From: a virus
Direction: 5' to 3' (one strand)
IMG/VR virus record: IMGVR_UViG_3300046616_000269
Coordinates: 6,617 to 70,616 of that record
Length of the DNA: 64,000 nt
The translations under genes were made by a program, and so were the position numbers. The stretch's first letter is position 1. Each line of letters begins with the position of its first letter. Of the stretch, positions 1,051 to 34,415 are shown one piece after another. The notes under the pieces were generated by a model. The model was given only the letters and a program-made list of their open reading frames with translations, made no database searches and was not told the DNA's origin.

Positions 1051-2475
1051 CTAGTTGGGTTGCTCTGCTGCGCCCAGGCGTGCCCAGACTCCAATGGTGC
1101 CGCCGCGCGTGATGTAGCCATCAAGTGCATACCTGATGGCATCCCAGCAGTGGTTGTGCTTATCCACGAGCTTCGGCAGCACCAGTGGCTGGCCCTGGCT
1201 GTCCACGACCTTCGGGTCCACCTGGTAGCGCCACAGGTAGGCTTCCTTAGCCGTTTCCTTGCAGCGCGTGTGGATGACGATCTTGTCGAAGCCCCGCAGG
1301 AAGGCGATGCCATCCTTTACGCTGCCGTCCCACTTCTGGGCGGCGCTGATGTTGAAGCCATGCCTGCGCTGCTTGCTGATGGTCTCGGGTCGCGCCGAGT
1401 CGGCCTTGATGGGCCAGTTCTCGGCATCCGGCACGCTGCGATAGAAGTCAGGCATGTCATCGAGTTCGACGCCCACACCATAAGCCTCGTACTCGATGTA
1501 TAAGCGGTTCTTTTTGGCATCGGCAGGGCTGGGCAAGATGAAGCCGCGAATCAGCGTGTTAGGGTCCTGACTGAAGCCGAAGTCGGCGCCGAACAGAACC
1601 CGGTCTGCATCCTTCCAGAGGTCGTCTTCAAAATCCTCTACGATGTACTTGCCGTTCAGGACGATGGCGTTGCTGATCTTCAGCGGCATGCCAAGCCAGA
1701 TGTGCTCGTACAGATGGTAGTCGTTTTCCTTGTCCGTCTCCATCTCTTCCCGCAGGCCTGCCGGGAAGTGCGGGTTGCTGTCGTAGTTGATCTTATGGAC
1801 GATGCTGTTAGGCCTGGGGTTTACTACCAGGCGCTGATACGTGGCATCGTTCTCGTCAATCAAGTTGAAGGTCACCCAGATCTCGGCGCCATCCTTGCGG
1901 CGCACCGTAGCACTCAGTGACTGCCAGCTGCCTGCTGTCGTCGTCTGCGCTTCTTCGACCCACGTAATGTCGATGCCTTCTAGTGAGCGGATGCCCTGGT
2001 CGTTGCCGTGCAAGCCCATGAAGATGAACTCGGCGCCCACCCTGGACTTAATGCTGGTGTCAGTCACATCGAACCAGGACTGCAGGCCCAGGCGTTCAAT
2101 GGTGTCCTTCAGCATCTTGTGCGAGCTGTGCTGGATCTTGTTCTGGAACTGCCGCGTGCAGAGGATACGCAAGGCGCTCTGGCTGGCTAGTCGGATAAGC
2201 GCTTCTGCGACTCCCCACGACTTCGCGCTGCCACGACCGCCCCAGTAGACTTTGTACGGCGCCCGCTTATAGTAGAGGTCGCTGAGTACGTGGTTCCTAT
2301 CCAGTACCAGCGACGGCACTGCCAGGAACTGCGGACCCAAGCTAGTCGTCGTGGCGGATTCGGCGTTTACCAGTTGCTGGCGCTTCAGCTTCGTCCGTCT
2401 GGCCTTCTCCGCCAGTGCCAAGGCTAACGCCTGCTTCGGCGGCAGCGCCCGCAATGATTGCGTCGAGATCGGCAT
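1051..2475 (-). CDS. terL: terminase large subunit (PBSX-type)
   Basis: Walker A GGRGSAKS, Walker B TWVEEAQ, nuclease motifs GADFG, ADSARP and HCWDAIRY; GGAG RBS before ATG 2475. Confidence 0.95.
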   Translation of the reverse strand: MPISTQSLRALPPKQALALALAEKARRTKLKRQQLVNAESATTTSLGPQFLAVPSLVLDRNHVLSDLYYKRAPYKVYWGGRGSAKSWGVAEALIRLASQSALRILCTRQFQNKIQHSSHKMLKDTIERLGLQSWFDVTDTSIKSRVGAEFIFMGLHGNDQGIRSLEGIDITWVEEAQTTTAGSWQSLSATVRRKDGAEIWVTFNLIDENDATYQRLVVNPRPNSIVHKINYDSNPHFPAGLREEMETDKENDYHLYEHIWLGMPLKISNAIVLNGKYIVEDFEDDLWKDADRVLFGADFGFSQDPNTLIRGFILPSPADAKKNRLYIEYEAYGVGVELDDMPDFYRSVPDAENWPIKADSARPETISKQRRHGFNISAAQKWDGSVKDGIAFLRGFDKIVIHTRCKETAKEAYLWRYQVDPKVVDSQGQPLVLPKLVDKHNHCWDAIRYALDGYITRGGTIGVWARLGAAEQPN

Positions 2476-6791: not shown

Positions 6792-7568
6792 TTACCACTC
6801 CCGTGCCGAGAAAGCCTGACCAGCAGTTGCGCCGATGATGGATACCGCATCCGTGCCTCCGCCCCCAGCCGGGGTTTCGTAGAGGGCGCCGGGTGCAAGG
6901 CGGATGGAGGGCTGGTTCAGTGTCGCCTGGACGCCGAGCCCGTTGAAGCCCAGGTCACCCGTCGACAGATTCTGGATCGAGTAGCCGCGCCGCGTCGGGT
7001 TGGCAGCCATCAGCAGCTGTGACGTGCCGCCAGTCGTGATGGTGCCGCTGCGGTTTGCCAGCACAGAAGGCGCAGGCGCCGTTGCGAAGACGGCATCACT
7101 GGCGGGCGCCACGGACAGGCTGGCTGCCGCGGTCTTGATGCCCAGGCTGGCGGGCAGCTGGGAGATCATGGCCGTCAGGCGCTGGGCGATGCGCTGCAGG
7201 CGGCCATTCAGGCCAGACGATGCCGTATCGCTGGCGGGCGCGGTTTCCGTGACTGCGCCCAGCAGGGCACCGTTGGCAACGACGCCGTTCGCAATGGCGG
7301 CTTCCTGGGCGAGCTGCAGCAGCTGGTTGGCTGCGCTGGCATCACCAGAGCCGCCACCACCGCCACCGCCGCTGACGATGACCACTGGCAAGGCCCCACC
7401 CTGCAGCGCCGGTTGCAGGGCCAGCAGCTGGGCCAGCAATGCATCGGTTTCAGGGGACTCGGTGCGCTGACGGTAGACGCTCAAGCCGCCTACTGTCAGC
7501 ACTTCGCAATCGATCTTCTTGCCCCCGTTTTGCGAGTCATCGGGAAGAGTTTGGAAACCATCAGCCAT
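6792..7568 (-). CDS. putative virion fibre/decoration protein
   Basis: Gly-run linker, GDASAANQ and a C-terminal beta domain (RSGTITTGG...RRGYSIQN) typical of phage fibre proteins; start MADGF at 7568. Confidence 0.55.
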   Translation of the reverse strand: MADGFQTLPDDSQNGGKKIDCEVLTVGGLSVYRQRTESPETDALLAQLLALQPALQGGALPVVIVSGGGGGGGSGDASAANQLLQLAQEAAIANGVVANGALLGAVTETAPASDTASSGLNGRLQRIAQRLTAMISQLPASLGIKTAAASLSVAPASDAVFATAPAPSVLANRSGTITTGGTSQLLMAANPTRRGYSIQNLSTGDLGFNGLGVQATLNQPSIRLAPGALYETPAGGGGTDAVSIIGATAGQAFSAREW

Positions 7569-7579
7569 AGCGAGTCCTT

Positions 7580-8131
7580 TCAGTTTAAGTTGGGTTGGTC
7601 TGCTCTGCGCAGCGCGTCCCACATTCGCAGCCCGGCTAGACGTGCCAGATCGATGCACTCATGTGGTAGGAGTTTTTGTGCGTCTCGGTTGGGATGTGCG
7701 CGGCGGCGCAGATGCATGACATCGGTCGCACCTTGGCGGCCGAGCAGGATGACCCCGCTGGTGGCTGGCAGGAACTCCAGCAGCTCGGGCTTCCAGATGT
7801 CGACTGGCAGCGCGTAATAGTGTTTCCACACCCTGGGCGGCCAGTCACGGCGAACACCGCCAGGAACGGCGTTAGAACGACTCCATGGCCTGTTCTGCCA
7901 CCACTTGTCCTTCTTCAGATCCGCCTTCAGGTCGCTGCGGCTGATCTTGACCTCGACATCAATGATGCGCAGGCCCTTTTCCACAACCAGCAGGTCGCAC
8001 TCGTGGCCGGTCCAGCCGCAGCAGGGCACGGCAAGGACGGCGCGGTGGAAAAGGTCGCCGTGGACTATGGCGCGGCCGATGCGCGCTTCCGTCCACTTCT
8101 GGGGCGGCTCGATGACTCGTCTTGCAACCAT
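7580..8131 (-). CDS. PD-(D/E)XK nuclease, MmcB-like
   Basis: ECDLLVV...DVEVKISRSDLKAD..K motif. Confidence 0.65.
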   Translation of the reverse strand: MVARRVIEPPQKWTEARIGRAIVHGDLFHRAVLAVPCCGWTGHECDLLVVEKGLRIIDVEVKISRSDLKADLKKDKWWQNRPWSRSNAVPGGVRRDWPPRVWKHYYALPVDIWKPELLEFLPATSGVILLGRQGATDVMHLRRRAHPNRDAQKLLPHECIDLARLAGLRMWDALRRADQPNLN

Positions 8132-10414: not shown

Positions 10415-10891
10415 CTAGTCTTGGAAGACCGTGGCAGAGTTGCCGTCGTGCTCGGCCACGAGGACCTGGGCGACGACCAGATTCAGTGGCGGCGTGATGC
10501 CGATTTCCAGCAGGTCGCCAACATAAAGCGGCAACCAGCCCTGCAGCTTCTCGAAGATCATCTGTGCAAAGGCTTCGCAGCCGGTCGCCCTGACGATGCG
10601 CATGTCGATGACTCCCGCCAGATGCAGCTTGGTCAGCTCGGCGCGTTCTGGGTCGTCCTGGGCGACCACGGTCGTGTGATCGAACTGTTCCTGCAGCCAT
10701 GCCTTCATCTGCTTCAAGGCGCCGAAGTCGACTACCCAGTTGCGGCTATCAAGGGCATCGGCCTCGAAGACGATTGTGATGGCAAGGGCGTAGCCGTGCA
10801 GCTTGCTGCAGTGACTCTTCGCCCGCCATTGACGGAAGCAGCAGGAAAGCCCCTGCTCGTGGCCGTAGCGCTTGATTGATTGAAATTTCAT
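10415..10891 (-). CDS. queD: 6-carboxytetrahydropterin synthase QueD
   Basis: SHCSKLHGY, WVVDFG.LK, FDHTT, GCEAFA and EHDGN motifs. Confidence 0.9.
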   Translation of the reverse strand: MKFQSIKRYGHEQGLSCCFRQWRAKSHCSKLHGYALAITIVFEADALDSRNWVVDFGALKQMKAWLQEQFDHTTVVAQDDPERAELTKLHLAGVIDMRIVRATGCEAFAQMIFEKLQGWLPLYVGDLLEIGITPPLNLVVAQVLVAEHDGNSATVFQD

Positions 10892-17389: not shown

Positions 17390-18115
17390 ATGTTTGGTCA
17401 GAATCCCATCCGTGCTGTCGAGCGCAATGCCGCCCAGCTGGCCGTCGAAGATATCTTCTACACGATTCAAGGCGAGGGGCCATTCGCTGGCTGCCCGGCG
17501 CTCTTCATCCGCTTGGCCGGCTGCAATCTGGCCTGCCACTTCTGCGACACCCAGTTCGAGACCATGGCTGATATGCCTGGGGATACGGCCGAGCTGCTGG
17601 GCACCATCCTGAACGTCTACCCCGCCAGCCAGCGCAAGCTGGTGGTCATCACCGGCGGCGAGCCGATGCGCCAGAACTTCTCGGCCCTGGCAGCCGGTCT
17701 GCTGGCAGCCGGAACTGAAACGATCCAGATCGAAACCGCGGGCACAGTCTGGCAACCGGACCTTGCGGACATGATCAAGGGCGGCAGCATCGTCCTCGTT
17801 TGCAGCCCAAAGACGCCGCGCGTCCACGCCAACATCGTTGAGTACTGTGACCATTGGAAGTACATTATTCGCGGCGGCGAGGTCGGCACCGATGGCTTGC
17901 CGAACGTGAGCACCCAGAAAAAGGGCGTCCCCCAGATCCTCTATCGGCCCTGGCAAAACCGGGCACTGACCACCGCGGAAACCATCTGGCTCAGCCCTTG
18001 CGACGATTACGATGCCGTCCTGAATAAGGTCAACCAGGACCTGGCCCGCGACCTCTGCCTGAAGCATGGCTACCGGCTCAGCCTGCAGATGCACAAGCTG
18101 GTAGACGTCAAATGA
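17390..18115 (+). CDS. queE: 7-carboxy-7-deazaguanine synthase QueE (radical SAM)
   Basis: TIQGEG, RLAGCNLACHFCDT, ITGGEP, IETAG, SPK and LSLQMHK motifs. Confidence 0.95.
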   Translation: MFGQNPIRAVERNAAQLAVEDIFYTIQGEGPFAGCPALFIRLAGCNLACHFCDTQFETMADMPGDTAELLGTILNVYPASQRKLVVITGGEPMRQNFSALAAGLLAAGTETIQIETAGTVWQPDLADMIKGGSIVLVCSPKTPRVHANIVEYCDHWKYIIRGGEVGTDGLPNVSTQKKGVPQILYRPWQNRALTTAETIWLSPCDDYDAVLNKVNQDLARDLCLKHGYRLSLQMHKLVDVK

Positions 18116-26993: not shown

Positions 26994-27013
26994 CAACTCA
27001 ACCGGAGATAGAT

Positions 27014-27916
27014 ATGAAGAAAGCACTTGTCGTCCTGAGTGGCGGCCAGGATTCGACGACCTGCCTTGCCATCTGCATGGCGCTGCTGACCAAGGGCAGC
27101 ATCGATGCCATTGCCGCCGTTACCTTCGACTACGGCCAGCGCCACGTCCGCGAACTGCAGGCAGCCAAGGACATCGCCGAACTCTGCGGCGTGACCGAGC
27201 ACGAGATTGTCCAGGTCGGCCCCATCCTGGCAGGCACCAGCCCGCTGACTGACCCCAACCAGCCGCTGGAGCAATACAAGGACTTCGCCAGCATGGACGC
27301 CATCATCGGCGACCGCGTCGAGAAGACGTTCGTGCCGATGCGCAACGCGCTGTTCCTAACTCTGGCCGCCAACCGCGCCGTCTGCATGGGCGCCACGATG
27401 ATCGTCACCGGTGTCTGCGAGGCCGACAACGCCAACTACCCCGACTGCCGCCAGGACTTCATCTACTCACAAGAGCGGACCATCAACGAAGCACTGGGCT
27501 TCGACCGCGGCGATGAGCGCTACATCCACATCTGGACTCCGCTTATGACGTCCAGCAAGGCTAAGTCCATCGATATGCTGATGGAACTCGGCGTCAACGC
27601 ATTCGCGCTGCTGGCCTTCTCGCATACGGCCTACGATGGCGCCTACCCGCCGGTCGGCAACGATCACGCCACACTGCTGCGCGCCGAAGGCTTCCGGCAG
27701 GCCGGCGTTGCCGATCCGCTGATCGTCCGCGCCGCCATGGACGGTTTGATGCCTTACCCAGGCACCGAGAACTACGACGCCTACCATGCCCGTCAGCAGC
27801 TGGGGGTTAAAGACAGCGAGCTGCAGTTTGCCATCAAGGCCCATCAGGCGCGTCTGCAGGCAGGCGCCATCCGCCGTCACAACGCAGCCGTCGACTTCAG
27901 CAAGGCGGTGCAGTGA
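27014..27916 (+). CDS. queC: 7-cyano-7-deazaguanine synthase QueC
   Basis: SGGQDSTT, FDYGQRH, TFVPMRN, YPDCR and TPLM motifs. Confidence 0.95.
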   Translation: MKKALVVLSGGQDSTTCLAICMALLTKGSIDAIAAVTFDYGQRHVRELQAAKDIAELCGVTEHEIVQVGPILAGTSPLTDPNQPLEQYKDFASMDAIIGDRVEKTFVPMRNALFLTLAANRAVCMGATMIVTGVCEADNANYPDCRQDFIYSQERTINEALGFDRGDERYIHIWTPLMTSSKAKSIDMLMELGVNAFALLAFSHTAYDGAYPPVGNDHATLLRAEGFRQAGVADPLIVRAAMDGLMPYPGTENYDAYHARQQLGVKDSELQFAIKAHQARLQAGAIRRHNAAVDFSKAVQ

Positions 27917-28518
27917 TGCCTAATACGCAACAGCCCTACCTCTTCTTGGAAGAAGAAAAGGCACAGCAGGCGGATGCGAAGATCGCCATTCAGACCTTGC
28001 TGCGGTTCGTTGGCGAAGATCCAGCGCGTGAAGGCCTGCTGGAGACTCCGGCGCGCGTCGTCAAGGCCTGGAAGGAGTGGTGCGACGGCTACGCGCAGGA
28101 CCCGGCTGCTGTCCTGAAGACCTTTGGTGATGGCGCCGAAGGCGTGGACGAGATGGTCATCGTCAAGGACATCGAGCTATATAGCCATTGCGAGCATCAC
28201 ATGGCTCCGTTTTTTGGCGTGGCGCACGTGGCCTATATCCCCAGCAAGCGCATCGTTGGCCTGTCGAAGATTGCGCGGCTGGTGGATATCTTCGCGCATC
28301 GCCTGCAGGTTCAGGAACGGCTGACCAACCAGATTGCCGATGCCATGCAAGAAGTCTTGGAACCCATCGGCATCGGCGTCGTCATCCAGGCCAAGCACTT
28401 TTGCATGTGCAGCCGCGGTGTGGGCAAGCAGGGCAGCACGACCATTACGTCGGCGCTGCGCGGCGCCATCAAGGACAAGCCGGAAGCCCGCGCCGAGTTC
28501 ATGGCCTTCCTCAAATGA
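27913..28518 (+). CDS. folE: GTP cyclohydrolase I FolE
   Basis: REGLLETPARV, SHCEHHMAPF, GLSK, QVQERLT and HFCMCSRG motifs. Confidence 0.97.
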   Translation: MMPNTQQPYLFLEEEKAQQADAKIAIQTLLRFVGEDPAREGLLETPARVVKAWKEWCDGYAQDPAAVLKTFGDGAEGVDEMVIVKDIELYSHCEHHMAPFFGVAHVAYIPSKRIVGLSKIARLVDIFAHRLQVQERLTNQIADAMQEVLEPIGIGVVIQAKHFCMCSRGVGKQGSTTITSALRGAIKDKPEARAEFMAFLK

Positions 28519-29453
28519 AAGTGTGGATGGCTGGGGCAGACGCCGGGAAAGTAGCCAACGCATATCTGGACGCGCAGCGTGGCATCTACCCACCAAGCCT
28601 CCAGTCATTCCATTACATCAGAGTAAAAATGATAAAACCATCCGCCTTTCAATTTTTTCTGGATTCCGGGGCCTACTCTGCGTGGTCCAGAGGAACCGCC
28701 ATCGACATAGACGAATACATCGCCTTCATCAAGGCGAACATCGAGCACATCGAGGTCTACGCCTGCCTGGACTCCATACCGGGCGAGATCGGCAAGGCGG
28801 CTACCGAGCGCCAGCGCCGCGAAGCCGCCGAGCTGACCTGGGAGAACTATCTGTACATGAAGGCGGAAGGCCTGGACCCGCTGCCCGTCTATCACTATGG
28901 CGAAGACTTCAAGTATCTGGACCGCATGCTTGACTACGGCTGCGATTACATCGGCATCGGTGGCCTTGTCCGGGTGCCGGGTCCCATGCGCAGACACTGG
29001 TTGGATCGCCTGTTCAAGCGCATCACGAATGACGCCGGCGAGCCGCTCATCAAGACGCACGGCTTCGGCATGACGGCGGTGCCGCTGGTCTTCCGCTATC
29101 CCTGGTACAGCATCGACTCGACCACCTGGATTCAGATTACCGCCAACGGCGCCGTATATCTGCCTGCCATGGTGGACGGCGAATTTGTCTTCGACCGGGT
29201 GCCAGCCACGGTGACGGTCAGCAACAAGAACCCCAAGCAGGGGCAGGGCGGCAAGGCAGCGAACACGATGAGCCCAGCCATGCGGGGCATCTTGGATCGC
29301 TGGCTGGCTGTCTGCGGCAAGACCTATGACGAAGTAGTCGACCACTACTATCACCGGGCCTGCGTCAACGTGACTTTCTTCAAGATGGTGAGCGAGGCCA
29401 AGGCCGCCCACGTCTTCCGGCCTGACGGCATCAGGAAACAATCGCTTTGGTAA
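28515..29453 (+). CDS. dpdA: DpdA-like DNA-guanine transglycosylase (TGT fold)
   Basis: FLDSGAYS, LD.IP, PVYH.GE, IGIGG, HGFG and YSIDSTTW motifs; ATGA-coupled to folE. Confidence 0.85.
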   Translation: MKVWMAGADAGKVANAYLDAQRGIYPPSLQSFHYIRVKMIKPSAFQFFLDSGAYSAWSRGTAIDIDEYIAFIKANIEHIEVYACLDSIPGEIGKAATERQRREAAELTWENYLYMKAEGLDPLPVYHYGEDFKYLDRMLDYGCDYIGIGGLVRVPGPMRRHWLDRLFKRITNDAGEPLIKTHGFGMTAVPLVFRYPWYSIDSTTWIQITANGAVYLPAMVDGEFVFDRVPATVTVSNKNPKQGQGGKAANTMSPAMRGILDRWLAVCGKTYDEVVDHYYHRACVNVTFFKMVSEAKAAHVFRPDGIRKQSLW

Positions 29454-29467
29454 AAGGAGAATCAAAA

Positions 29468-29875
29468 ATGGGAACCGCAACAAAGACCGCCGCCGACTAT
29501 TTCAGCCAGGGCGTTATCGACGCCCGCCAGGGCAAGCCCATGCTGGCCCGCGCCGCCAGCTGGCAGGGTAAGGCCTACTGCGCAGGCTACAAGGAAGAAA
29601 GCGACCGCATCACCGCGGACCGGCTGAAGGAAGCCACCAAGCCAGCCAATCGTAAGCCCATCTTCTCGCCAGATCCGCTGCCCACCTTTTTCCTGGGTGC
29701 CAACGACATGTCGTACTGGCCCGAGGGTGCCCGAGAACACGCGATCCAGCTGCGGCAGGCCCTGGGCAAGGAACAGACGCAGAAACGCGCCCAGCGCCTC
29801 GTTAGGAGCCTGGAGCGCATGGTGGCGCGGCACAGCATCACGCCGCTGTCCACGGCACGCCGCGCGGCAGCATGA
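29468..29875 (+). CDS. hypothetical protein
   Basis: AAGGAG RBS; YFSQG..D...G...W...Y..GY N-terminus weakly resembling Rmf. Confidence 0.6.
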   Translation: MGTATKTAADYFSQGVIDARQGKPMLARAASWQGKAYCAGYKEESDRITADRLKEATKPANRKPIFSPDPLPTFFLGANDMSYWPEGAREHAIQLRQALGKEQTQKRAQRLVRSLERMVARHSITPLSTARRAAA

Positions 29876-30132
29876 AGATCTACCTGGTCTGCAGCACGGC
29901 CAAGAACTGGATGGCGACCGGCTACGGCGGCGCGCTGGTCCATGGTGACGCCGACCGGCTGCTGGTCAGCTTTGTCGAGTTCGTCAAGAACCCCGCCCAG
30001 CAGCTGGCCGTGACGGATATGCCCAGCCCCTACGTTCCCAGCCAGAAGAAGGTCCTGGCAGAACTGCCCGTTGCCATCGGTTCGATGGTCACCAATCACA
30101 TGGAAGAAATCTTCGGAGATGCAGATGAATAA
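29872..30132 (+). CDS. micro-protein resembling the DpdA N-terminus
   Basis: ATGA-coupled; MKIYL...RLLVSF. Confidence 0.6.
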   Translation: MKIYLVCSTAKNWMATGYGGALVHGDADRLLVSFVEFVKNPAQQLAVTDMPSPYVPSQKKVLAELPVAIGSMVTNHMEEIFGDADE

Positions 30133-30559
30133 CAAGCTGATCTATCTGGCCGGCGCCATCGCTGGCCGCAGTGATGCCGACTGCAATACGTGGCGCCAGA
30201 CCGTTACGCGCCTGTGGGGCGGCCAGACCCTGGACCCGATGCGGCGTGACGGCAGGGGCCGCGAACTGCAGGAAGGCAGCACCAAGGAAATCGTGGAAGG
30301 CGATAAGGCCGACATCATGGCTTGCGATGCCGTCCTGGTCTGGTACGAGGCCCCCAGCGTTGGGACGTCGATGGAAATCCTGTTCGCCTGGGAGCAGCAC
30401 AAGCCCCTGGTCTTGATGAACATCAGCGGCCAGCCCGACCACATGCTGAGTTACTGGATACGCTACCACTGCGAGCCCTACATTCGCCCAGACATCCCTA
30501 GTGCCATCTGGCTGTTGCATGACCTGCTGGATCTCGACCCGCCAGACCACAACGAATGA
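30125..30559 (+). CDS. nucleoside 2-deoxyribosyltransferase / dNMP N-glycosidase family
   Basis: IYLAG, D..DI..CD.V, SVGTSMEI..A (catalytic Glu). Confidence 0.85.
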   Translation: MNNKLIYLAGAIAGRSDADCNTWRQTVTRLWGGQTLDPMRRDGRGRELQEGSTKEIVEGDKADIMACDAVLVWYEAPSVGTSMEILFAWEQHKPLVLMNISGQPDHMLSYWIRYHCEPYIRPDIPSAIWLLHDLLDLDPPDHNE

Positions 30560-30711
30560 AGATCTATCCGGTCCTGGGTGGCGACGATCCCTTCTGGCCT
30601 GGGCGCTGCTGTATAGATAGCGATGTCAGCGCCGTCCTGATCAGCTTCGCCAACTACCCCAAAGTCTTCACCTCTCTCTCAACTGAACCAAGCCATCAAG
30701 GAAAAACATGA
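30556..30711 (+). CDS. 51-aa micro-protein (not in the ORF track)
   Basis: MKIYPVLGG...VLISFANY...; ATGA overlaps at both ends. Confidence 0.6.
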   Translation: MKIYPVLGGDDPFWPGRCCIDSDVSAVLISFANYPKVFTSLSTEPSHQGKT

Positions 30712-31793
30712 ACGAAAAATCAACGACCAATCGGCTGGCACTCGCCAAGGTGGCGGCGCTGGTGCGGCCAGCCCTGGCAACGCAGGACTACATCAAGGCG
30801 CTGACGCACATCAAGTTCGACGGCGAATACGCGACCAGCCATAACGACATCAGCGCCATCAGCATTCGTTGCCAGGTGGCAGTCGACCGCTGCATTCCCG
30901 GCGAATTGCTCATCAAGGCCCTGGGCAGCTTCGGCGCCGAGCAGATCATGTTCCAAGACGGCAAGAACGGCGCCCTGGTGCTGAGTAGTGGCCGCAGTAA
31001 GCTGACGCTGCCCACCCTGGCCGCCAAGGACTTCCCGTTCGACTGGCCCAGTGATGAAGACGGCACCGAGGTCGACCTGGACCATGCCATCCTGAAGGGT
31101 ATCGAGCGCTGCCTGCTCAGCGTCGGCACAGACCCCACGCATGCATCCCAGATGGGAGTTACCCTGGACGCCGACGACCGCGGCCATGCAGTGCTGTTCA
31201 GCACCGATAACTTCAGCATGAGCCGCTACCAGACCAAGACCAAGGTCAAGCTGCCCGGCGACGTGCCAGTCATCCTGCCGCGCTTCTTCTGCGAGCAGCT
31301 AGTCAGCCTGTCCAAGGCCTACCCGGATGACGACATGGTCCTGGTGCTGCACGACGGCGCCCTGCTGGTCGAGTTCGGCAAGGCCGCCAAGCTGTTCACC
31401 AAGACCCCAGTCGACCTGCAGCCGCTCGACTTCCCATCCATGTTCCTGAAGTACGTCAAGCTGGACGGCATCAAGAACAAGCTGTCCGTGATTCCCGACA
31501 GCTTCGATGCAGCTTTCGGCCGCGCCTTGCTGGTGTTGAGTGGCGAAGTCGATAAGGCCACCAAGGTCACCGTGGACGGCGACAGCATCAAACTCAGCAG
31601 TACATCCAGCCTGGGTGACAGCGATGACAGCATGAGCTTCGACGGCAGCGAACTCGACGCCTTCCATACGGACCCCGTCATGATCGCCCGCGCCGTTAAG
31701 GCCTGCGCATTGCTGGGCTTCACGCCGAAGGTCACCATCCTGGCCGACGCCGACGCAAATTTTGTCCACCTTGTCGCCCACTGCGCCGCCTAA
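30708..31793 (+). CDS. dnaN: DNA sliding clamp, beta-like
   Basis: About 360 aa with three-domain DnaN-like patterns (L..L.AKDFP, STDNF.M). Confidence 0.75.
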   Translation: MNEKSTTNRLALAKVAALVRPALATQDYIKALTHIKFDGEYATSHNDISAISIRCQVAVDRCIPGELLIKALGSFGAEQIMFQDGKNGALVLSSGRSKLTLPTLAAKDFPFDWPSDEDGTEVDLDHAILKGIERCLLSVGTDPTHASQMGVTLDADDRGHAVLFSTDNFSMSRYQTKTKVKLPGDVPVILPRFFCEQLVSLSKAYPDDDMVLVLHDGALLVEFGKAAKLFTKTPVDLQPLDFPSMFLKYVKLDGIKNKLSVIPDSFDAAFGRALLVLSGEVDKATKVTVDGDSIKLSSTSSLGDSDDSMSFDGSELDAFHTDPVMIARAVKACALLGFTPKVTILADADANFVHLVAHCAA

Positions 31794-31799
31794 GCTGTC

Positions 31800-34415
31800 A
31801 TGGCCTTTTTCTTCAATGAGTCCAAGAAGGAGGCCGCCAAGCCGAAGGCTAAAGCGGTCACCAAGCGCAGCAACGCAGTCGTCCCCATTGCAAGCCTGCA
31901 GAAGATGGGCTGCGCGGCTTGCCCGCGCGATAAGGACGACTCCTTGCTGAGTCCGAAGATGGAGCCCAGCGGCAAGAAGGGCGCCCCAGTCTACCTGCTG
32001 GGCGGCAACCCCAGCAAGGCCGAAGACGAAGACAACATGCACTGGACGGACAAGGCCGGGCAGATGATCGCCAGCAAGTTCGGCGGCAAGTTCATGAAGT
32101 CCGAAGTCCGGTCTAACTTCATCACGCAATGCAGGGGCGCCGACACCGAAGTGGAAATCGAGTGCTGCCGCAACCGCATCGTGGCCGACATCGAAGCCGC
32201 GCAGCCGCTGGTCATCGTCACGATAGGCGATGCCGCCATGCGCTGGGCGGTCAAGTTCGGAACGCCAAGCAAGCACAGCGCCCTGAATCACCGCGGCGCG
32301 CTATTCGTCGTCAAGATCGGCCGCCACGTCTGCTACCTGATGCCGCTGCTGTTCCCTAACTTTGTCTTCAAGAAGAGCTTCAAGAAGTCGGAGTACGAGT
32401 TCACCCTGGAACACGACATCAAGCGCATCAAGGCCCTGGTTCAGCGCGATGACCTGCCGCCTGCCCACGTCTATGAAAAGCCATATGACGCTGGCGTCGA
32501 ACTCATTACCGGCAACGAGCCCGGTGACATGCAGCGGCTGCAGCTGGCCCTGCAAGATCTGGCAGCCGAGCCAGACGTCGGCCTGGATCTGGAAACCAAT
32601 GGCCTGCGGCCTTACTTCCTGAAGGACCCGAAGATCTGGATGATTGCCATCGGCACGTTCGAGCGCACCATCGTCTTCCCGCTGGATCATCCCGAAGGCT
32701 GGGGGACGGAAGGCAGGCGCCGGCAGGTCTGGTCGCTGGTGGGGGAGTTCCTGATGAACAGTGGCCGCAAGCAGGCCCACAACCTCGCCATGGAGATGGA
32801 GTGGCTGTCCTACTTCTTCGGCCCCGCGATTTTGCGCAAGACCGAGTGGGAAGACACCATGGCAATGGCGCATACGCTGAACGAGCAGCCCGGCACCAAG
32901 GCGCTGGGAACGCAGACCGTCATGCACTTCGGCTTCGATGTCAAGGCGCAATCCAATATCGACGTCAAGCGCATCCTCGAGTACCCGCTGCGCGACACGC
33001 TGCGCTATTGCGGCATGGACACCAAGTGGACCAATAAGCTGGCGCGGACTCTGATGCCACTGGTGCGGGCTGAGAACCTGGCCGAGTACGAACGCAAGGT
33101 CCGGCTGGCGTCGACTCTGATTCTGACGGAGGCGAAAGGCATGCCCGTCGACTTCAAGTACGTCGATGACCTGCGCGAAACGACCGAGACCACGCTGAAG
33201 GACATCGAAGGCAGGCTGCGCAGGACGCCTGAGATCAAGGAGTACTCGTCGCGCTTCGGCACCTTCAGCCCCACGGCACCTGCGCACGTTCTGAAGCTGC
33301 TGCGCGACGTCTGCAAGCGGACCGAGATCGTCGTAGAAGATCGCGACGGCAGGCGCGAGACGACGGGCGAAGAAGAACTGTCGAAGATACCGGCGGCCGA
33401 AGTGCCCAGCGTCCCGCTTATCTTGGAACACCGCGCCATGTCCAAGATTCTGGGCACCTACATCCTGCCCCTGCATAACCGCGAGATCGTCTGCCCAGAT
33501 GGCAGGGTGCGCAGCAAGTACAGCAGCATGACCGCCGTCACCGGGCGCCTTGCCAGTGAAGACCCCAACGTGCAGAACTTCCCGAAGCGTAAGCACAAGG
33601 AAGTGCGTGGCGCCATCTACGCGCCGCCTGGGTGGTGGATAGCGGCCCTAGATTACGGCCAGATCGAGTTCCGGGTCGTCGGCATGGCATCGGGTGACCC
33701 TGCCATCGTCGAGGCCTGCTGGACCGGTTATGACGTGCACAAATTCTGGGCCGAGCGCATCGTCGCACTCTACCCAGGCGCAAAGGACTGGATTGTCGAA
33801 ACCTTCGGCGTCGACTGGGATGAGAAGGGCCTGAAGACGCTGCGGCAGGAAGCCAAGAACAAGTGGGTCTTCCCCCAGCTGTTCGGCGCCTCTGCCAAGA
33901 GTTGCGCGGAATCCCTGCATCTGCCCGACGATGTGACAGAGGACCTGGTGGGGGAGTTCTGGGACACCTTCAAGGTCGCCCGCAAGTGGCAGGAAAAGCT
34001 GCTGGCCGGCTACGAAAAGAATCTGTACGTGGAATGCCTGGGTGGCCGCAAGCGGCGCGGCCCCATGACGAAGGAGCAGGTCATCAACGCGCCCATCCAG
34101 GGGACCGCCTTGGATATTGTTGCAGAGGGTATGAATGCAGTAAGCGAGCGCGCCGAAGCCGAAGACGATGCCGACCTGCAGCCGAACCTGAACGTGCACG
34201 ATGACCTTTCCTTCTGGATTCCAGACCACTGCCTGACCCAGAAGATCGACATCATTGCCACCGAGATGTGCAAGCCGCGGTTCGACTACATCAACGTGCC
34301 GCTGATCGTCGAAGCAAGCGTTGGAAGCCGCTGGCATGACCTGCACGAAATCAAGGTCTACCGCAGCAACGAACTCTTCGGCACCCCCAACCCTTATGCG
34401 AAAGGCAAGCGATGA
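31800..34415 (+). CDS. polA: family A DNA polymerase with N-terminal UDG-like and 3'-5' exonuclease domains
   Basis: CAACP...QCR...ECC UDG fold; DLET, HN and YC..D exonuclease motifs; TGRLAS..PNVQN, DYGQIE, INAPIQG, VHDD. Confidence 0.95.
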   Translation: MAFFFNESKKEAAKPKAKAVTKRSNAVVPIASLQKMGCAACPRDKDDSLLSPKMEPSGKKGAPVYLLGGNPSKAEDEDNMHWTDKAGQMIASKFGGKFMKSEVRSNFITQCRGADTEVEIECCRNRIVADIEAAQPLVIVTIGDAAMRWAVKFGTPSKHSALNHRGALFVVKIGRHVCYLMPLLFPNFVFKKSFKKSEYEFTLEHDIKRIKALVQRDDLPPAHVYEKPYDAGVELITGNEPGDMQRLQLALQDLAAEPDVGLDLETNGLRPYFLKDPKIWMIAIGTFERTIVFPLDHPEGWGTEGRRRQVWSLVGEFLMNSGRKQAHNLAMEMEWLSYFFGPAILRKTEWEDTMAMAHTLNEQPGTKALGTQTVMHFGFDVKAQSNIDVKRILEYPLRDTLRYCGMDTKWTNKLARTLMPLVRAENLAEYERKVRLASTLILTEAKGMPVDFKYVDDLRETTETTLKDIEGRLRRTPEIKEYSSRFGTFSPTAPAHVLKLLRDVCKRTEIVVEDRDGRRETTGEEELSKIPAAEVPSVPLILEHRAMSKILGTYILPLHNREIVCPDGRVRSKYSSMTAVTGRLASEDPNVQNFPKRKHKEVRGAIYAPPGWWIAALDYGQIEFRVVGMASGDPAIVEACWTGYDVHKFWAERIVALYPGAKDWIVETFGVDWDEKGLKTLRQEAKNKWVFPQLFGASAKSCAESLHLPDDVTEDLVGEFWDTFKVARKWQEKLLAGYEKNLYVECLGGRKRRGPMTKEQVINAPIQGTALDIVAEGMNAVSERAEAEDDADLQPNLNVHDDLSFWIPDHCLTQKIDIIATEMCKPRFDYINVPLIVEASVGSRWHDLHEIKVYRSNELFGTPNPYAKGKR

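Follow-up and report, generated by a model that had tools for sequence, protein, structure and literature searches.

DpdA enzymes write 7-deazaguanine into phage DNA and thereby shield it from restriction and CRISPR nucleases. The determinants of DpdA sequence preference and efficiency remain an open question. In the bacterial DpdA of the Dpd system, an insertion after barrel strand 1 forms, with Ins8, the DNA-binding surface, and the insertions that follow strands 2 and 3 flank the active site, with a possible role in sequence specificity (PMC10164549).

The canonical phage DpdA1 proteins of the Queuovirinae (CAjan, 9g and NP1/JG012) share with the enzyme described here a core resembling tRNA-guanine transglycosylase (TGT) with an FLDSGAF strand. 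CAjan, 9g and JG012 also share the gene order FolE - DpdA - clamp - DNA polymerase. The N-termini of their DpdAs (MNVFMAAVYTNGY...HILESYHYVG) match our canonical N-module profile, but in these phages the module is integral to one protein of ~306-318 aa, and no stand-alone modules were found in the 6.7-8.7 kb around each dpdA gene. In contrast, in the clade to which our phage belongs, the module is detachable, occurs in more than one copy and often follows the core in gene order.

Gene order around dpdA

The window (the whole 64,000-nucleotide stretch of DNA that was analysed) is part of a 70.6-kb phage genome, and the features of its dpdA region are listed in Table 1. ATGA stop/start overlaps are found at four starts, those of the DpdA ORF, m1, m2 and the clamp gene. 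By synteny, the sliding-clamp gene is the downstream edge of the zone that holds the micro-ORFs. The Ndt-like gene was matched in 7/17 clade loci and is missing from many relatives; the L001 locus stops short of this slot. The only phmmer match (E ≤ 1e-5) of the 135-aa ORF outside the window was in L001, and its slot is taken by longer ORFs in L002 and ZHS (L016). Neither m1, m2 nor the 135-aa ORF could be assigned to a Pfam or PHROG family, and megablast of positions 27000-32000 against phage records gave nothing beyond short QueC and FolE matches.

Table 1. Features of the dpdA region, in window positions.
Feature	Position	Strand	Evidence and remarks
QueC (7-cyano-7-deazaguanine synthase), preQ0 pathway context gene	27014..27916	+	Pfam PF06508, E 2.5e-46
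FolE (GTP cyclohydrolase I)	27913..28518	+	Pfam PF01227, E 8.8e-74; stop overlaps next start as ATGA
N0, N-terminal module (strand 1, helix, strand 2), in-frame fusion to DpdA core	28515..28628	+	leave-window-out profile, hhalign
DpdA core, TGT-like, FFLDSG strand onwards	28629..29453	+	phrog_887, E 1.3e-53
135-aa protein, unknown function	29468..29875	+	patchy among relatives; no Pfam/PHROG family
m1 ('mB' ortholog group), 86 aa	29872..30132	+	leave-window-out profile, E 3.9e-19; start overlaps preceding stop as ATGA
Nucleoside 2-deoxyribosyltransferase-like (Ndt)	30125..30559 (alternative start 30119)	+	Pfam PF05014, E 1.1e-7
m2, 51 aa, same module family as m1	30556..30711	+	leave-window-out profile, E 2.9e-10; ATGA overlaps with Ndt stop and clamp start
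Sliding clamp (DNA polymerase processivity factor)	30708..31793	+	phrog_947, E 3e-34; synteny

The DpdA core and its N-terminus

The DpdA ORF (28515-29453, 312 aa) starts MKVWMAG...SLQSFHY, with SF at residues 31-32. Its match to phrog_887 ('queuine tRNA-ribosyltransferase') covers residues 29-291 (E 1.3e-53), while a Pfam search found no family at E ≤ 1. An AlphaFold2 model (pLDDT 78) gave 7ui4 DpdA as the best Foldseek match, followed by TGTs, and only DpdA or TGT structures were listed, although these matches were weak (best E 6.4e-3, TM 0.38). Taken with the model of a canonical relative, the window model places the core among the TGT-type (beta/alpha)8 barrels. As in this enzyme family, the DSG motif that follows strand 3 contains the catalytic Asp, and a later strand contains another conserved Asp. 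D50-S51-G52 together with S199, D201 and S202 are invariant in 43 clade sequences, and D58-S59-G60 and D200 are invariant in a 34-sequence alignment that includes distant DpdAs. D201 could be the nucleophile of the core, an assignment that is inferred only. The structural zinc site of TGT and bacterial DpdA (CXCX2C...H) was not found; there is no CXCXXC in the window DpdA. In the clade alignment C267 is the sole invariant Cys, and C143 is nearly invariant.

The GC content is 53.5% at 28515-28628 vs 59.9% at 28629-29450, with a trough of 37-42% at 28580-28640, immediately 5′ of an in-frame ATG at 28629. This ATG corresponds to the start position used by core-only homologues. The sequence facts given in the original prediction, which was made from the sequence alone, all held: the N-terminal sequences and SF positions of DpdA and of the ORFs at 29872-30132 and 30556-30711, the translational coupling of the micro-ORFs (by ATGA overlaps), the AT-richer 5′ part of dpdA, and the second possible start at 28629 before the FLDSG core.

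m1 and m2 are small genes of a conserved family

m1 (29872-30132) starts MKIYLVC...RLLVSFVEF, with SF at residues 33-34, and consists of an N-module (residues 1-37) followed by an acidic tail. m2 (30556-30711) starts MKIYPVL...VLISFANY, with SF at 30-31. When the window's 1,396 six-frame ORFs were searched with a profile built only from 32 micro-ORFs of other phages, m1 and m2 were recovered at E 3.9e-19 and 2.9e-10 (next best 0.32).

Loci of relatives were sampled with a DpdA alignment, which gave 65 loci and was used instead of a viral-contig scan with a 4-sequence mB alignment, which gave 3. At least one micro-ORF was present between the dpdA core and the sliding-clamp gene in 17/17 clade loci, with 1 to 4 copies per relative. 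The mB group was present in all 17, with or without N0. Furthermore, all 39 family matches in 17,179 six-frame ORFs (803 kb) were in clade loci on the dpdA strand, and all were downstream of dpdA except the N0 of L002, which is upstream. The modules follow dpdA also in loci without Ndt. Orthologs of m2 with a common PKAFTSLS-type tail were found in L003, L025, L026, L028 and L029. The cultured Edwardsiella phage vB_EpM_ZHS has two members, annotated as hypothetical proteins ZHS_63 and ZHS_62.

Ortholog groups persist between phages with no more than 58-78% identity in the DpdA core, and start codons and coupling are retained. In every pair that could be computed dN/dS was below 1: the closest mB pair gave 0.03-0.08, mC gave 0.035 and m2 gave 0.15, compared with 0.07-0.28 for the core. 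It was likewise below 1 for m1 against five orthologs. These ratios are rough because dS was saturated (above 1) in most pairs. The GC3 of m1 is 0.80. A search of 1.84 billion proteins with mB returned 67 cluster representatives (50% identity) at E ≤ 1e-3, of which 65 are 54-114 aa long. None of the 67 was fused to a DpdA core, as a circularly permuted enzyme would be, or joined to a protein of DpdA length. These results show that m1 and m2 are real small genes of a conserved family.

The tails of the paralogs are very different (acidic, basic or Cys4). A CxxxC...CxxxxC motif is seen in the tail of some mB relatives. In relatives, some ORFs overlap their neighbours by 40-140 nt.

The micro-proteins are homologous to the DpdA N-terminus

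Pairwise BLASTP among DpdA, m1 and m2 was not significant (E 1.1, 0.80 and 6.0). Profile-profile comparison with hhalign aligned the micro family with the N-termini of the fused clade DpdAs (probability 96.2%, P 2.3e-9, 32 aligned columns, score 36.0) and with the N-termini of 29 distant canonical DpdAs (93.4%, P 2.6e-7, 32 columns, score 28.9). In both comparisons 0/50 column shuffles reached the observed score, and reversed controls scored 6.4 and 7.9. An iterated profile search from the micro family converged at 39 matches and gained the separate N0 of L002 (iE 5.8e-4, round 3), but this sequence-to-profile iteration did not recruit the window's N0 or the canonical N-termini. The link to these therefore rests on the profile-profile scores, which establish that the micro family is homologous to the DpdA N-terminus.

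The identity of the shared region was read from a high-confidence model of one canonical phage DpdA (pLDDT 92.9, pTM 0.90), for which all 50 listed Foldseek matches were TGT or DpdA (best E 1.2e-7). Two strands and a helix (E2-6, H13-22 and E25-29) precede the LFLDS strand (E54-58), so that the canonical N-terminus comprises strand 1, helix 1 and strand 2 of a TGT-type barrel.

We also considered that the micro-ORFs might be N-terminal fragments of Ndt, since Ndt starts ..KLIYLAG and sits between m1 and m2. This origin was rejected; hhalign against five clade Ndt proteins gave a probability of 0.7%, and the canonical module gave 15.6% against Ndt over only 16 columns.

The N-terminal module of DpdA is detachable

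N0 in the window DpdA was found at E 4.7e-5 (runner-up 0.3) by a profile that combined 39 fused DpdA N-termini and excluded the window. The N0 family aligned with canonical N-termini at an hhalign probability of 90.8%, and 0/50 shuffles reached this score. GC3 is 0.605 for N0 and 0.63 for m2, vs ~0.8 in neighbouring genes, which may possibly reflect weaker constraint.

The arrangement of the module varies widely among the 120 closest DpdAs. Sixty-six are core-only, that is, they start ≤10 residues from FFLDSG; 40 have one fused module, 4 have two or three tandem modules, and the remaining 10 have short extensions. The junction residue is M or V in 44/44 fused forms. L002 encodes the counterpart of N0 as an ORF of its own (41 aa), with an ATGA overlap between its stop and the start of the core. 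Thus, in the clade of the window, the N-module of DpdA is detachable. Where two or three modules stand in tandem (P0003, P0010, P0113 and P0049), they cannot all fit into a single barrel, a point against the split-enzyme reading. In the AlphaFold2 model of the window DpdA the cis module was not confidently placed (pLDDT < 50 at residues 1-8 and 27-48), so that its presence in the barrel is neither shown nor excluded.

Stand-alone modules are also found outside the clade. Four of 10 distant core-only dpdA loci (L039, L042, L051 and L060) have one nearby, and the one in L060 overlaps the dpdA stop with its start. In the flanks examined of the other six no module reached the threshold; L043 has a weak candidate (E 0.05). 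Extra modules were present even in L004, L037, L048 and L050, where DpdA has an integral module.

Complex model of the core with m1

Core residues 39-312 were modelled with m1 in three runs, together with three controls. The complex scores were 0.90, 0.91 and 0.87, with at least 66% contact agreement and a partner pLDDT of at least 57. The best control scored 0.00, as did the control in which an unrelated 296-aa protein replaced the core. In calibration the pass mark was reached by 58/80 solved complexes and 2/110 mismatched pairs, counts that are only roughly valid here because custom alignments were used. In the contacts with the lowest error, LLVSF of m1 (residues 30-34) met FFLD of the core (47-50), and m1 residues 2-4 met the YSID stretch at core 198-201. 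The strands of m1, the only micro-protein modelled, are thus predicted to fit between the FFLD and YSID strands of the core, in the barrel strand 1 and 2 positions beside the DSG strand. Such a pass shows that m1 fits the fold, not that it binds, because the halves of split proteins tend to pass by likeness to solved TGT structures.

The original prediction had named three outcomes that would refute it: no profile similarity of the micro-ORFs to DpdA N-termini, no co-occurrence with dpdA, and no predicted or measured interaction. None of these was met. Profile similarity is present (hhalign 96.2% and 93.4%), co-occurrence is tight (directly downstream in 17/17 clade loci, and also in distant lineages), and the predicted interaction of m1 with the core from 28629 passes its controls with a barrel-completing geometry. 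The proposal of a first-strand module held in part, since the module is the first two barrel strands and not the first alone. The idea of stand-alone or exchangeable modules that complement DpdA is supported, with binding modelled and not measured. Retuning of specificity is no more than plausible, by analogy with the statements on the strand-1 and strand-2 loops of bacterial DpdA (PMC10164549).

Discussion

We consider it likely (probability roughly 0.65) that DpdA of this clade is a naturally split enzyme whose barrel is completed in trans or in cis. What is shown is that the family exists and is conserved, that it is homologous to DpdA N-termini, that the module is detachable and that it is co-located with dpdA; the binding of m1 to the core in the cell and its need for activity are inferred, without binding data. 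In the split-enzyme reading, m1 and m2 would each be a stand-alone N-terminal quarter of the DpdA barrel, comprising strand 1, helix 1, strand 2 and a free tail. The catalytic core would start at the FFLDSG strand (ATG 28629) and lack the two strands that close the barrel, which would lie between the strand of the DSG aspartate and that of the conserved S-x-D-S motif. The source of these strands would be either a module fused in frame (in cis; 28515-28628 in the window) or a separate micro-protein (in trans), namely m1 or one of its orthologs, which are encoded a few hundred bases further downstream and are present in every relative examined. Since the genes from queC to the polymerase have overlapping stop and start codons, this run would yield the core and micro-protein pieces together. 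The paralogs N0, m1 and m2 (up to four per relative) may give holoenzymes that differ in DNA preference through their strand-1 and strand-2 loops and tails, a difference that is likewise inferred. With a cis module in the window DpdA, this phage has no obvious need of m1 and m2, which counts against the split-enzyme reading.

One alternative is that the micro-proteins, with their origin in the DpdA N-terminus, are now regulators and not subunits. They might, for example, bind the open core or a folding host TGT or DpdA to leave it inactive or timed, or they might compete with the cis module. In its favour, m1 and m2 are kept although the window DpdA already has a cis module, there are several paralogs per genome with very different acidic, basic or Cys4 tails, and the complex model shows only a fit to an open barrel, which an inhibitor could achieve likewise. 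However, 66/120 of the closest DpdAs lack a module of their own, and mB is present in 17/17 clade loci regardless of N0. Furthermore, the strands that the core lacks lie beside both of its catalytic strands in the model, so that a completing subunit would be needed anyway. We consider this alternative unlikely.

We also regard it as improbable that the micro-proteins act independently of DpdA, with each other or with replication proteins (the clamp, the polymerase or the Ndt-like enzyme), and that the likeness reflects ancestry only. Such a role would agree with the position of the micro-genes between dpdA and the clamp and polymerase genes, where m2 overlaps the clamp start, with the extra modules beside DpdAs with an integral module in L004, L037, L048 and L050, and with the lack of any DpdA fusion among the 67 mB matches. 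Against it, the N0 group often fuses with and splits from the DpdA core, the modules follow dpdA even where Ndt is absent, CAjan, 9g and JG012 have the FolE-DpdA-clamp-polymerase order with an integral module and no stand-alone modules, and the score was 0.00 when an unrelated 296-aa protein was used instead of the core. Least credible, and very unlikely in our view, is that the micro-ORFs are functionless, decaying stubs of 5′ dpdA left by recombination at gene boundaries. The low GC3 of m2 and N0 in the window, the 40-140 nt overlaps of some ORFs in relatives and the copy number of 1 to 4 could be read this way, but the ortholog groups are conserved, with starts and coupling kept, despite cores of 58-78% identity, dN/dS is well below 1, the GC3 of m1 is 0.80, and the mB-like small proteins form 67 distinct 50%-identity clusters.

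If the split-enzyme reading is true, a DpdA with its DNA-facing quarter on exchangeable micro-genes would give a direct handle on sequence preference and efficiency. It would also be a rare natural TIM barrel built from separately encoded pieces, and it would bear on the long-standing idea that TIM barrels have their origin in quarter or half barrels. Metagenomic 'DpdA' calls of ~274 aa would then in many cases be incomplete enzymes unless their micro-partners, which are mostly unnamed or uncalled by current annotation pipelines, are annotated as well. A bolder reading, which we put forward only as a possibility, is that DpdA is a combinatorial enzyme in which one core is completed by any of several quarter-barrel micro-subunits, in the clade of the window and independently in some distant dpdA phages, as a natural and evolving case of TIM-barrel fragment complementation. 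Each subunit would then bring its own strand-1 and strand-2 loops and its acidic, basic or Cys4 tail to the DNA-binding face, and the choice of guanine contexts modified with 7-deazaguanine would depend on the set of micro-genes.

Comparison with known systems

No separate N-terminal modules of DpdA are described in the literature that we searched (DpdA/7-deazaguanine, split TGTs and split TIM barrels, with supplements outside the scope), in agreement with the original prediction, which knew of no such accessory components. PMC10516641 and PMC6884629 describe none in the sections that bear on split, truncated or small proteins. The bacterial DpdA of the Dpd system (PDB 7UI4; PMC10164549) is, like the core described here, a (beta/alpha)8 barrel with a catalytic Asp after strand 3, and the regions after strands 1 and 2 that carry insertions in the bacterial enzyme are the parts carried by the micro-proteins. 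It differs in being a single chain of 413 residues that works with the ATPase DpdB, and in having the CXCX2C...H zinc site that the window's core lacks; the relevant sections of the structure paper mention no separate N-terminal subunit (PMC10164549).

Split or heteromeric tRNA-guanine transglycosylases are alike in that a TGT-family enzyme is made from more than one polypeptide. A split archaeal ArcTGT is one such case, and the heteromeric eukaryotic QTRT1/QTRT2 was among our Foldseek matches. In these enzymes, however, the subunits are whole domains or whole paralogous barrels, and to our knowledge none has its barrel cut between strands 2 and 3. Engineered TIM barrels, in which fragments complement each other and quarters or halves are swapped (PMC13137295), resemble the proposed enzyme in that the barrel is formed from separately made (beta-alpha) pieces and the quarter-barrel is an exchangeable unit. 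The halves of HisF are an example of such engineered complementation. These are laboratory constructs, whereas the split proposed for the phage enzyme would be natural and conserved, with several alternative quarter-barrel genes per genome.

A micro-gene family conserved beside dpdA

The original prediction was that two micro-ORFs of the window, m1 and m2, may be stand-alone or exchangeable N-terminal modules that complement or retune DpdA, the TGT-like phage DNA-modifying enzyme. All of the sequence details it gave for DpdA, m1 and m2 held. The resemblance was invisible to pairwise BLASTP among the three proteins (E 1.1, 0.80 and 6.0), and no Pfam or PHROGs family was found for m1 or m2; the case therefore depends on relatives. 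Three close relatives (viral contigs, DpdA 72-78% identical) each carry 2-4 similarly patterned ORFs on the same strand, and 12 aligned micro-ORFs and modules gave the consensus MKIYLAxG..(about 20 residues)..RxLVSFxxY. The starting profile comprised 10 of these 12 sequences, excluding N0, the module fused in frame to the window's DpdA core, and the N0 of L002, a related dpdA locus. It was searched against 17,179 six-frame ORFs (≥25 aa) drawn from the window and 803 kb of retrieved loci. The iterated search converged at 39 matches, all in loci of the clade (the window's close dpdA relatives), all on the dpdA strand and all downstream of dpdA except the upstream N0 of L002. The best match outside the clade (E 0.01) was again a small ORF directly behind dpdA, in the distant locus L037. 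A window-excluded profile recovered m1 (E 3.9e-19) and m2 (E 2.9e-10) among 1,396 window ORFs, with the next best at 0.32.

At least five ortholog groups were distinguished: N0 (upstream of or fused to the core), mA, mB (including m1), mC and m2. Among 1.84 billion cluster representatives the mB profile matched 67 proteins at E ≤ 1e-3, nearly all aligning from their first few residues. Sixty-five are 54-114 aa long; the others are 166 and 177 aa, and one of these two, P0164, is a pair of tandem modules. No DpdA-length protein was among the 67, and no mB-core fusion was found. The cultured Edwardsiella phage vB_EpM_ZHS encodes two family members, annotated as hypothetical proteins ZHS_63 and ZHS_62.

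Homology to the DpdA N-terminus

The distant phage DpdAs retrieved share the two-strand pattern of the micro-ORFs, typically starting MKIYLAGE..(10-35 residues)..KRRLFSYYYH, with DLFLDSGAF ~25 residues on. By hhalign, the micro family (34 sequences) matched the fused clade N-termini (40 sequences) at a probability of 96.2% (P 2.3e-9, score 36.0, best shuffle 17.3) and the N-termini of 29 distant canonical DpdAs at 93.4% (P 2.6e-7, score 28.9, best shuffle 9.8). Fused and canonical N-termini matched each other at 90.8% (P 1.2e-6, score 23.9, best shuffle 9.2). In each comparison 0/50 shuffles reached the observed score, and all three alignments span 32 columns, the module from end to end. Reversed controls scored 6.4-8.2, and the neighbouring Ndt family, used as a negative control, reached probabilities of 0.7%, 15.6% (over the first strand alone) and 0.1%. 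The micro-proteins are thus a conserved family, homologous to the N-terminal quarter-barrel of DpdA and always beside dpdA in the clade.

In the canonical DpdA of L080, AlphaFold2 (34-sequence alignment; pLDDT 92.9, pTM 0.90) placed a strand at 2-6, a helix at 13-22, a strand at 25-29 and then the LFLDS strand at 54-58. All 50 listed Foldseek matches were TGT or DpdA structures (best E 1.2e-7). By this model and its matches, the homologous module comprises the barrel's first strand, first helix and second strand.

A detachable module

Over half of the clade's closest DpdAs lack the N-terminal quarter. In the best 120 of 671 homologues (E ≤ 1e-5), 66 are core-only, starting ≤10 residues from FFLDSG (usually as MIxPxxFxFFLDSG, in a protein of about 274 aa), 10 carry a short extension, which in some is only the second strand of a module, and 40 have a single fused module (about 311-316 aa). 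The remaining four (P0003, P0010, P0113, P0049) have two or three tandem modules, each with an initial Met. The junction M or V is kept in 44/44 fused forms (37 M and 4 V at the exact position, 3 M one residue earlier), consistent with a retained internal start; the window's equivalent, ATG 28629, follows the stretch of highest AT content in the region. L002 encodes N0 on its own, as a 41-aa ORF with a stop that overlaps the core ATG, and in L001 and L003 N0 is absent altogether. Repeated joining and splitting of this sort is a classical indication of two polypeptides working together.

Tandem arrangements were also seen in two further loci (L035, an mA-mB fusion, and L036) and in P0164, a small protein. 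Units of the in-frame arrays each start with Met or Val; P0049 has three modules ahead of one DpdA core, and other cores have two.

The canonical-module profile also detects stand-alone small ORFs adjoining dpdA in distant loci; many of these rows are near-duplicates, hence only counts are given. Where DpdA starts at the DSG strand, 4/10 distant loci have a stand-alone module at threshold (L039, L042, L051 and L060, the last with its start overlapping the dpdA stop), and the candidate in L043 is weak (E 0.05). Extra copies also occur where the module is integral (43 rows), namely in L037, L048/L049 (identical) and L050. The integral module of L004 falls under the final profile threshold, and its stand-alone modules number two at threshold and five at looser ones. 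L004 and L037 show 3-5 extra downstream module ORFs, several back to back, with a DpdA that has its own N-module.

Predicted complex of the core with m1

A complex was modelled of m1 (alignment of 16 rows) and the DpdA core starting at 28629 (residues 39-312; alignment of 43 rows). The proposed interaction between core and micro-protein held for m1, as a prediction only: the complex scored 0.90, 0.91 and 0.87, against 0.00 for the best of three controls, with contact agreement between runs ≥66% and partner pLDDT ≥57. In calibration the mark was reached by 58/80 solved complexes and 2/110 mismatched pairs, counts that are only approximate here because custom alignments were used. The lowest-error contacts join m1 30-34 (LLVSF) to core 47-50 (FFLD) and m1 2-4 to core 198-201 (YSID); both core strands bear invariant residues (D50; S199, D201, S202). 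With these contacts the modelled m1 closes the barrel at the core's opening, between the strands bearing the conserved aspartates. The model thus predicts that m1 completes the core and can substitute for strands 1-2; binding in the cell is not shown, and pieces of split proteins tend to pass such a test through likeness to solved TGT structures. The most likely working mode, inferred without binding or activity data, is that the active enzyme would be core plus module, the latter supplied in cis or in trans.

Gene order and the preQ0 pathway

The virus record is 70,616 bp long and carries direct terminal repeats; the window, its bases 6617-70616, contains only one DpdA match. Genes near dpdA are all on the + strand and tightly coupled, and an ATGA overlap with the preceding stop occurs at the start codons of the DpdA ORF, m1, m2 and the clamp gene.

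Coordinates of features in the window and in related loci and proteins
Feature	Location	Strand	Remark
QueD-type gene	10532-10855	-	PF01242, E 1.1e-16
Radical-SAM gene	17516-17806	+	PF04055, E 4.5e-9
QueC	27014-27916	+	
GTP cyclohydrolase I (FolE)	27913-28518	+	
DpdA ORF	28515-29453	+	
Unknown ORF, 135 aa	29468-29875	+	between dpdA and m1
Micro-ORF m1	29872-30132	+	
Ndt-like gene	30125-30559	+	PF05014, E 1.1e-7
Micro-ORF m2	30556-30711	+	
Sliding clamp	30708-31793	+	
Family-A DNA polymerase	31800-34415	+	
Overlapping ORFs	L001:7431-7715 vs 7573-7860		
Overlapping ORFs	L002:7369-7584 vs 7508-7789		
Overlapping ORFs	L003:2270-2539 vs clamp start near 2424-2436		
Extended GTP cyclohydrolase I	L003:2-838		
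Extra module ORFs	L004:6795-8590		
Extra module ORFs	L037:6020-6477		
Tandem modules	L036:4875-5951		
Tandem modules	L035:952-1455		mA-mB fusion
CxxxC...CxxxxC(H) protein	L030:5936-6271		mB-type
CxxxC...CxxxxC(H) protein	L032:5822-6088		mB-type
CxxxC...CxxxxC(H) protein	L035:1096-1452		mB-type
CxxxC...CxxxxC(H) protein	P0123		mB-type

In the window the overlaps are 4 nt at the m1 start and at both m2 ends, and the Ndt start lies over the m1 end by 8-14 nt; in relatives, several micro-ORFs run 40-140 nt into the following gene, in a different frame. The 135-aa ORF has a strong AAGGAG ribosome-binding site, matches no Pfam or PHROG family and is found in only some relatives, where its length varies (135-196 aa). 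The Ndt-like gene sits within the micro-ORF zone beside the 7-deazaguanine system, and its role there is unexplained. In L003 the GTP cyclohydrolase I gene has a ~90-residue N-terminal extension with a VIIDDIIDTGAT-type motif; such motifs are typical of phosphoribosyltransferases.

The QueD-type and radical-SAM genes are distant from the queC-folE-dpdA block. Nothing in the genome scored above the QueF cut-off, the sole match falling within FolE. Given QueC, FolE, QueD-type and radical-SAM genes and no QueF at cut-off, the phage is probably equipped for preQ0 synthesis, whatever the final modified base.

Alternative explanations

Several observations count against the core-plus-module reading. 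In the window, DpdA already has a module in cis, which leaves the need for m1 and m2 there unclear, and AlphaFold2 placed that cis module without confidence. Codon-usage signatures of N0 and m2 are weak: GC3 is 0.80 for m1, as is normal for genes of this genome, and N0 (0.61) and m2 (0.63) depart from that. Furthermore, not all units of a tandem array can enter one barrel, and the mB search turned up no fusion to a core.

It is unlikely that the micro-proteins are regulators or inhibitors. A function independent of DpdA is also improbable: by gene map, the interval from the dpdA core to the clamp gene contains at least one micro-ORF in 17/17 clade loci (L016 and L024 being near-identical) and an Ndt gene was matched in only 7/17, so the micro-ORFs track dpdA, not Ndt. 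Among the ten loci without an Ndt match, L001 stops short of the slot. Least credible is that the micro-ORFs are decaying stubs. Nei-Gojobori dN/dS was <1 in every computable pair; in the closest pairs, mB came out at 0.076 over the whole protein and 0.032 over its module, mC at 0.035 and m2 at 0.15, and the DpdA core gave 0.07-0.28. These ratios are rough because dS >1 in most pairs.

Comparison with known DpdA proteins

In bacterial DpdA the insertion after strand 1 and Ins8 form a positively charged DNA-binding surface, and the active site is flanked by those that follow strands 2 and 3, which may aid sequence-specific recognition (PMC10164549). The segments after strands 1 and 2 are the most divergent between micro-protein paralogs, the stretch after strand 2 being a free tail that is acidic in m1, strongly basic in five loci (L025, L026, L028, L029, L031) and equipped with a CxxxC...CxxxxC motif in three (L030, L032, L035). 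Since the variable segments correspond to DNA-facing insertions of the bacterial enzyme, alternative modules could plausibly give holoenzymes different DNA preferences, a suggestion by analogy without activity data. The C-terminal CxxxC...CxxxxC(H) of some mB-type proteins may be a zinc ribbon; the usual TGT zinc motif is present neither in the window's DpdA core nor in the clade cores.

In the literature searched (including PMC10516641, PMC6884629 and PMC10164549; supplements not covered) no account was found of DpdA N-terminal modules that are separate or present in several copies. No stand-alone copies were found in the stretches examined of CAjan, 9g and JG012, whose characterised Queuovirinae DpdAs have integral modules, unlike the detachable ones of the window clade. 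The DpdA family is already known; a split form of it, in which several quarter-barrel genes are alternatives, appears to be new.
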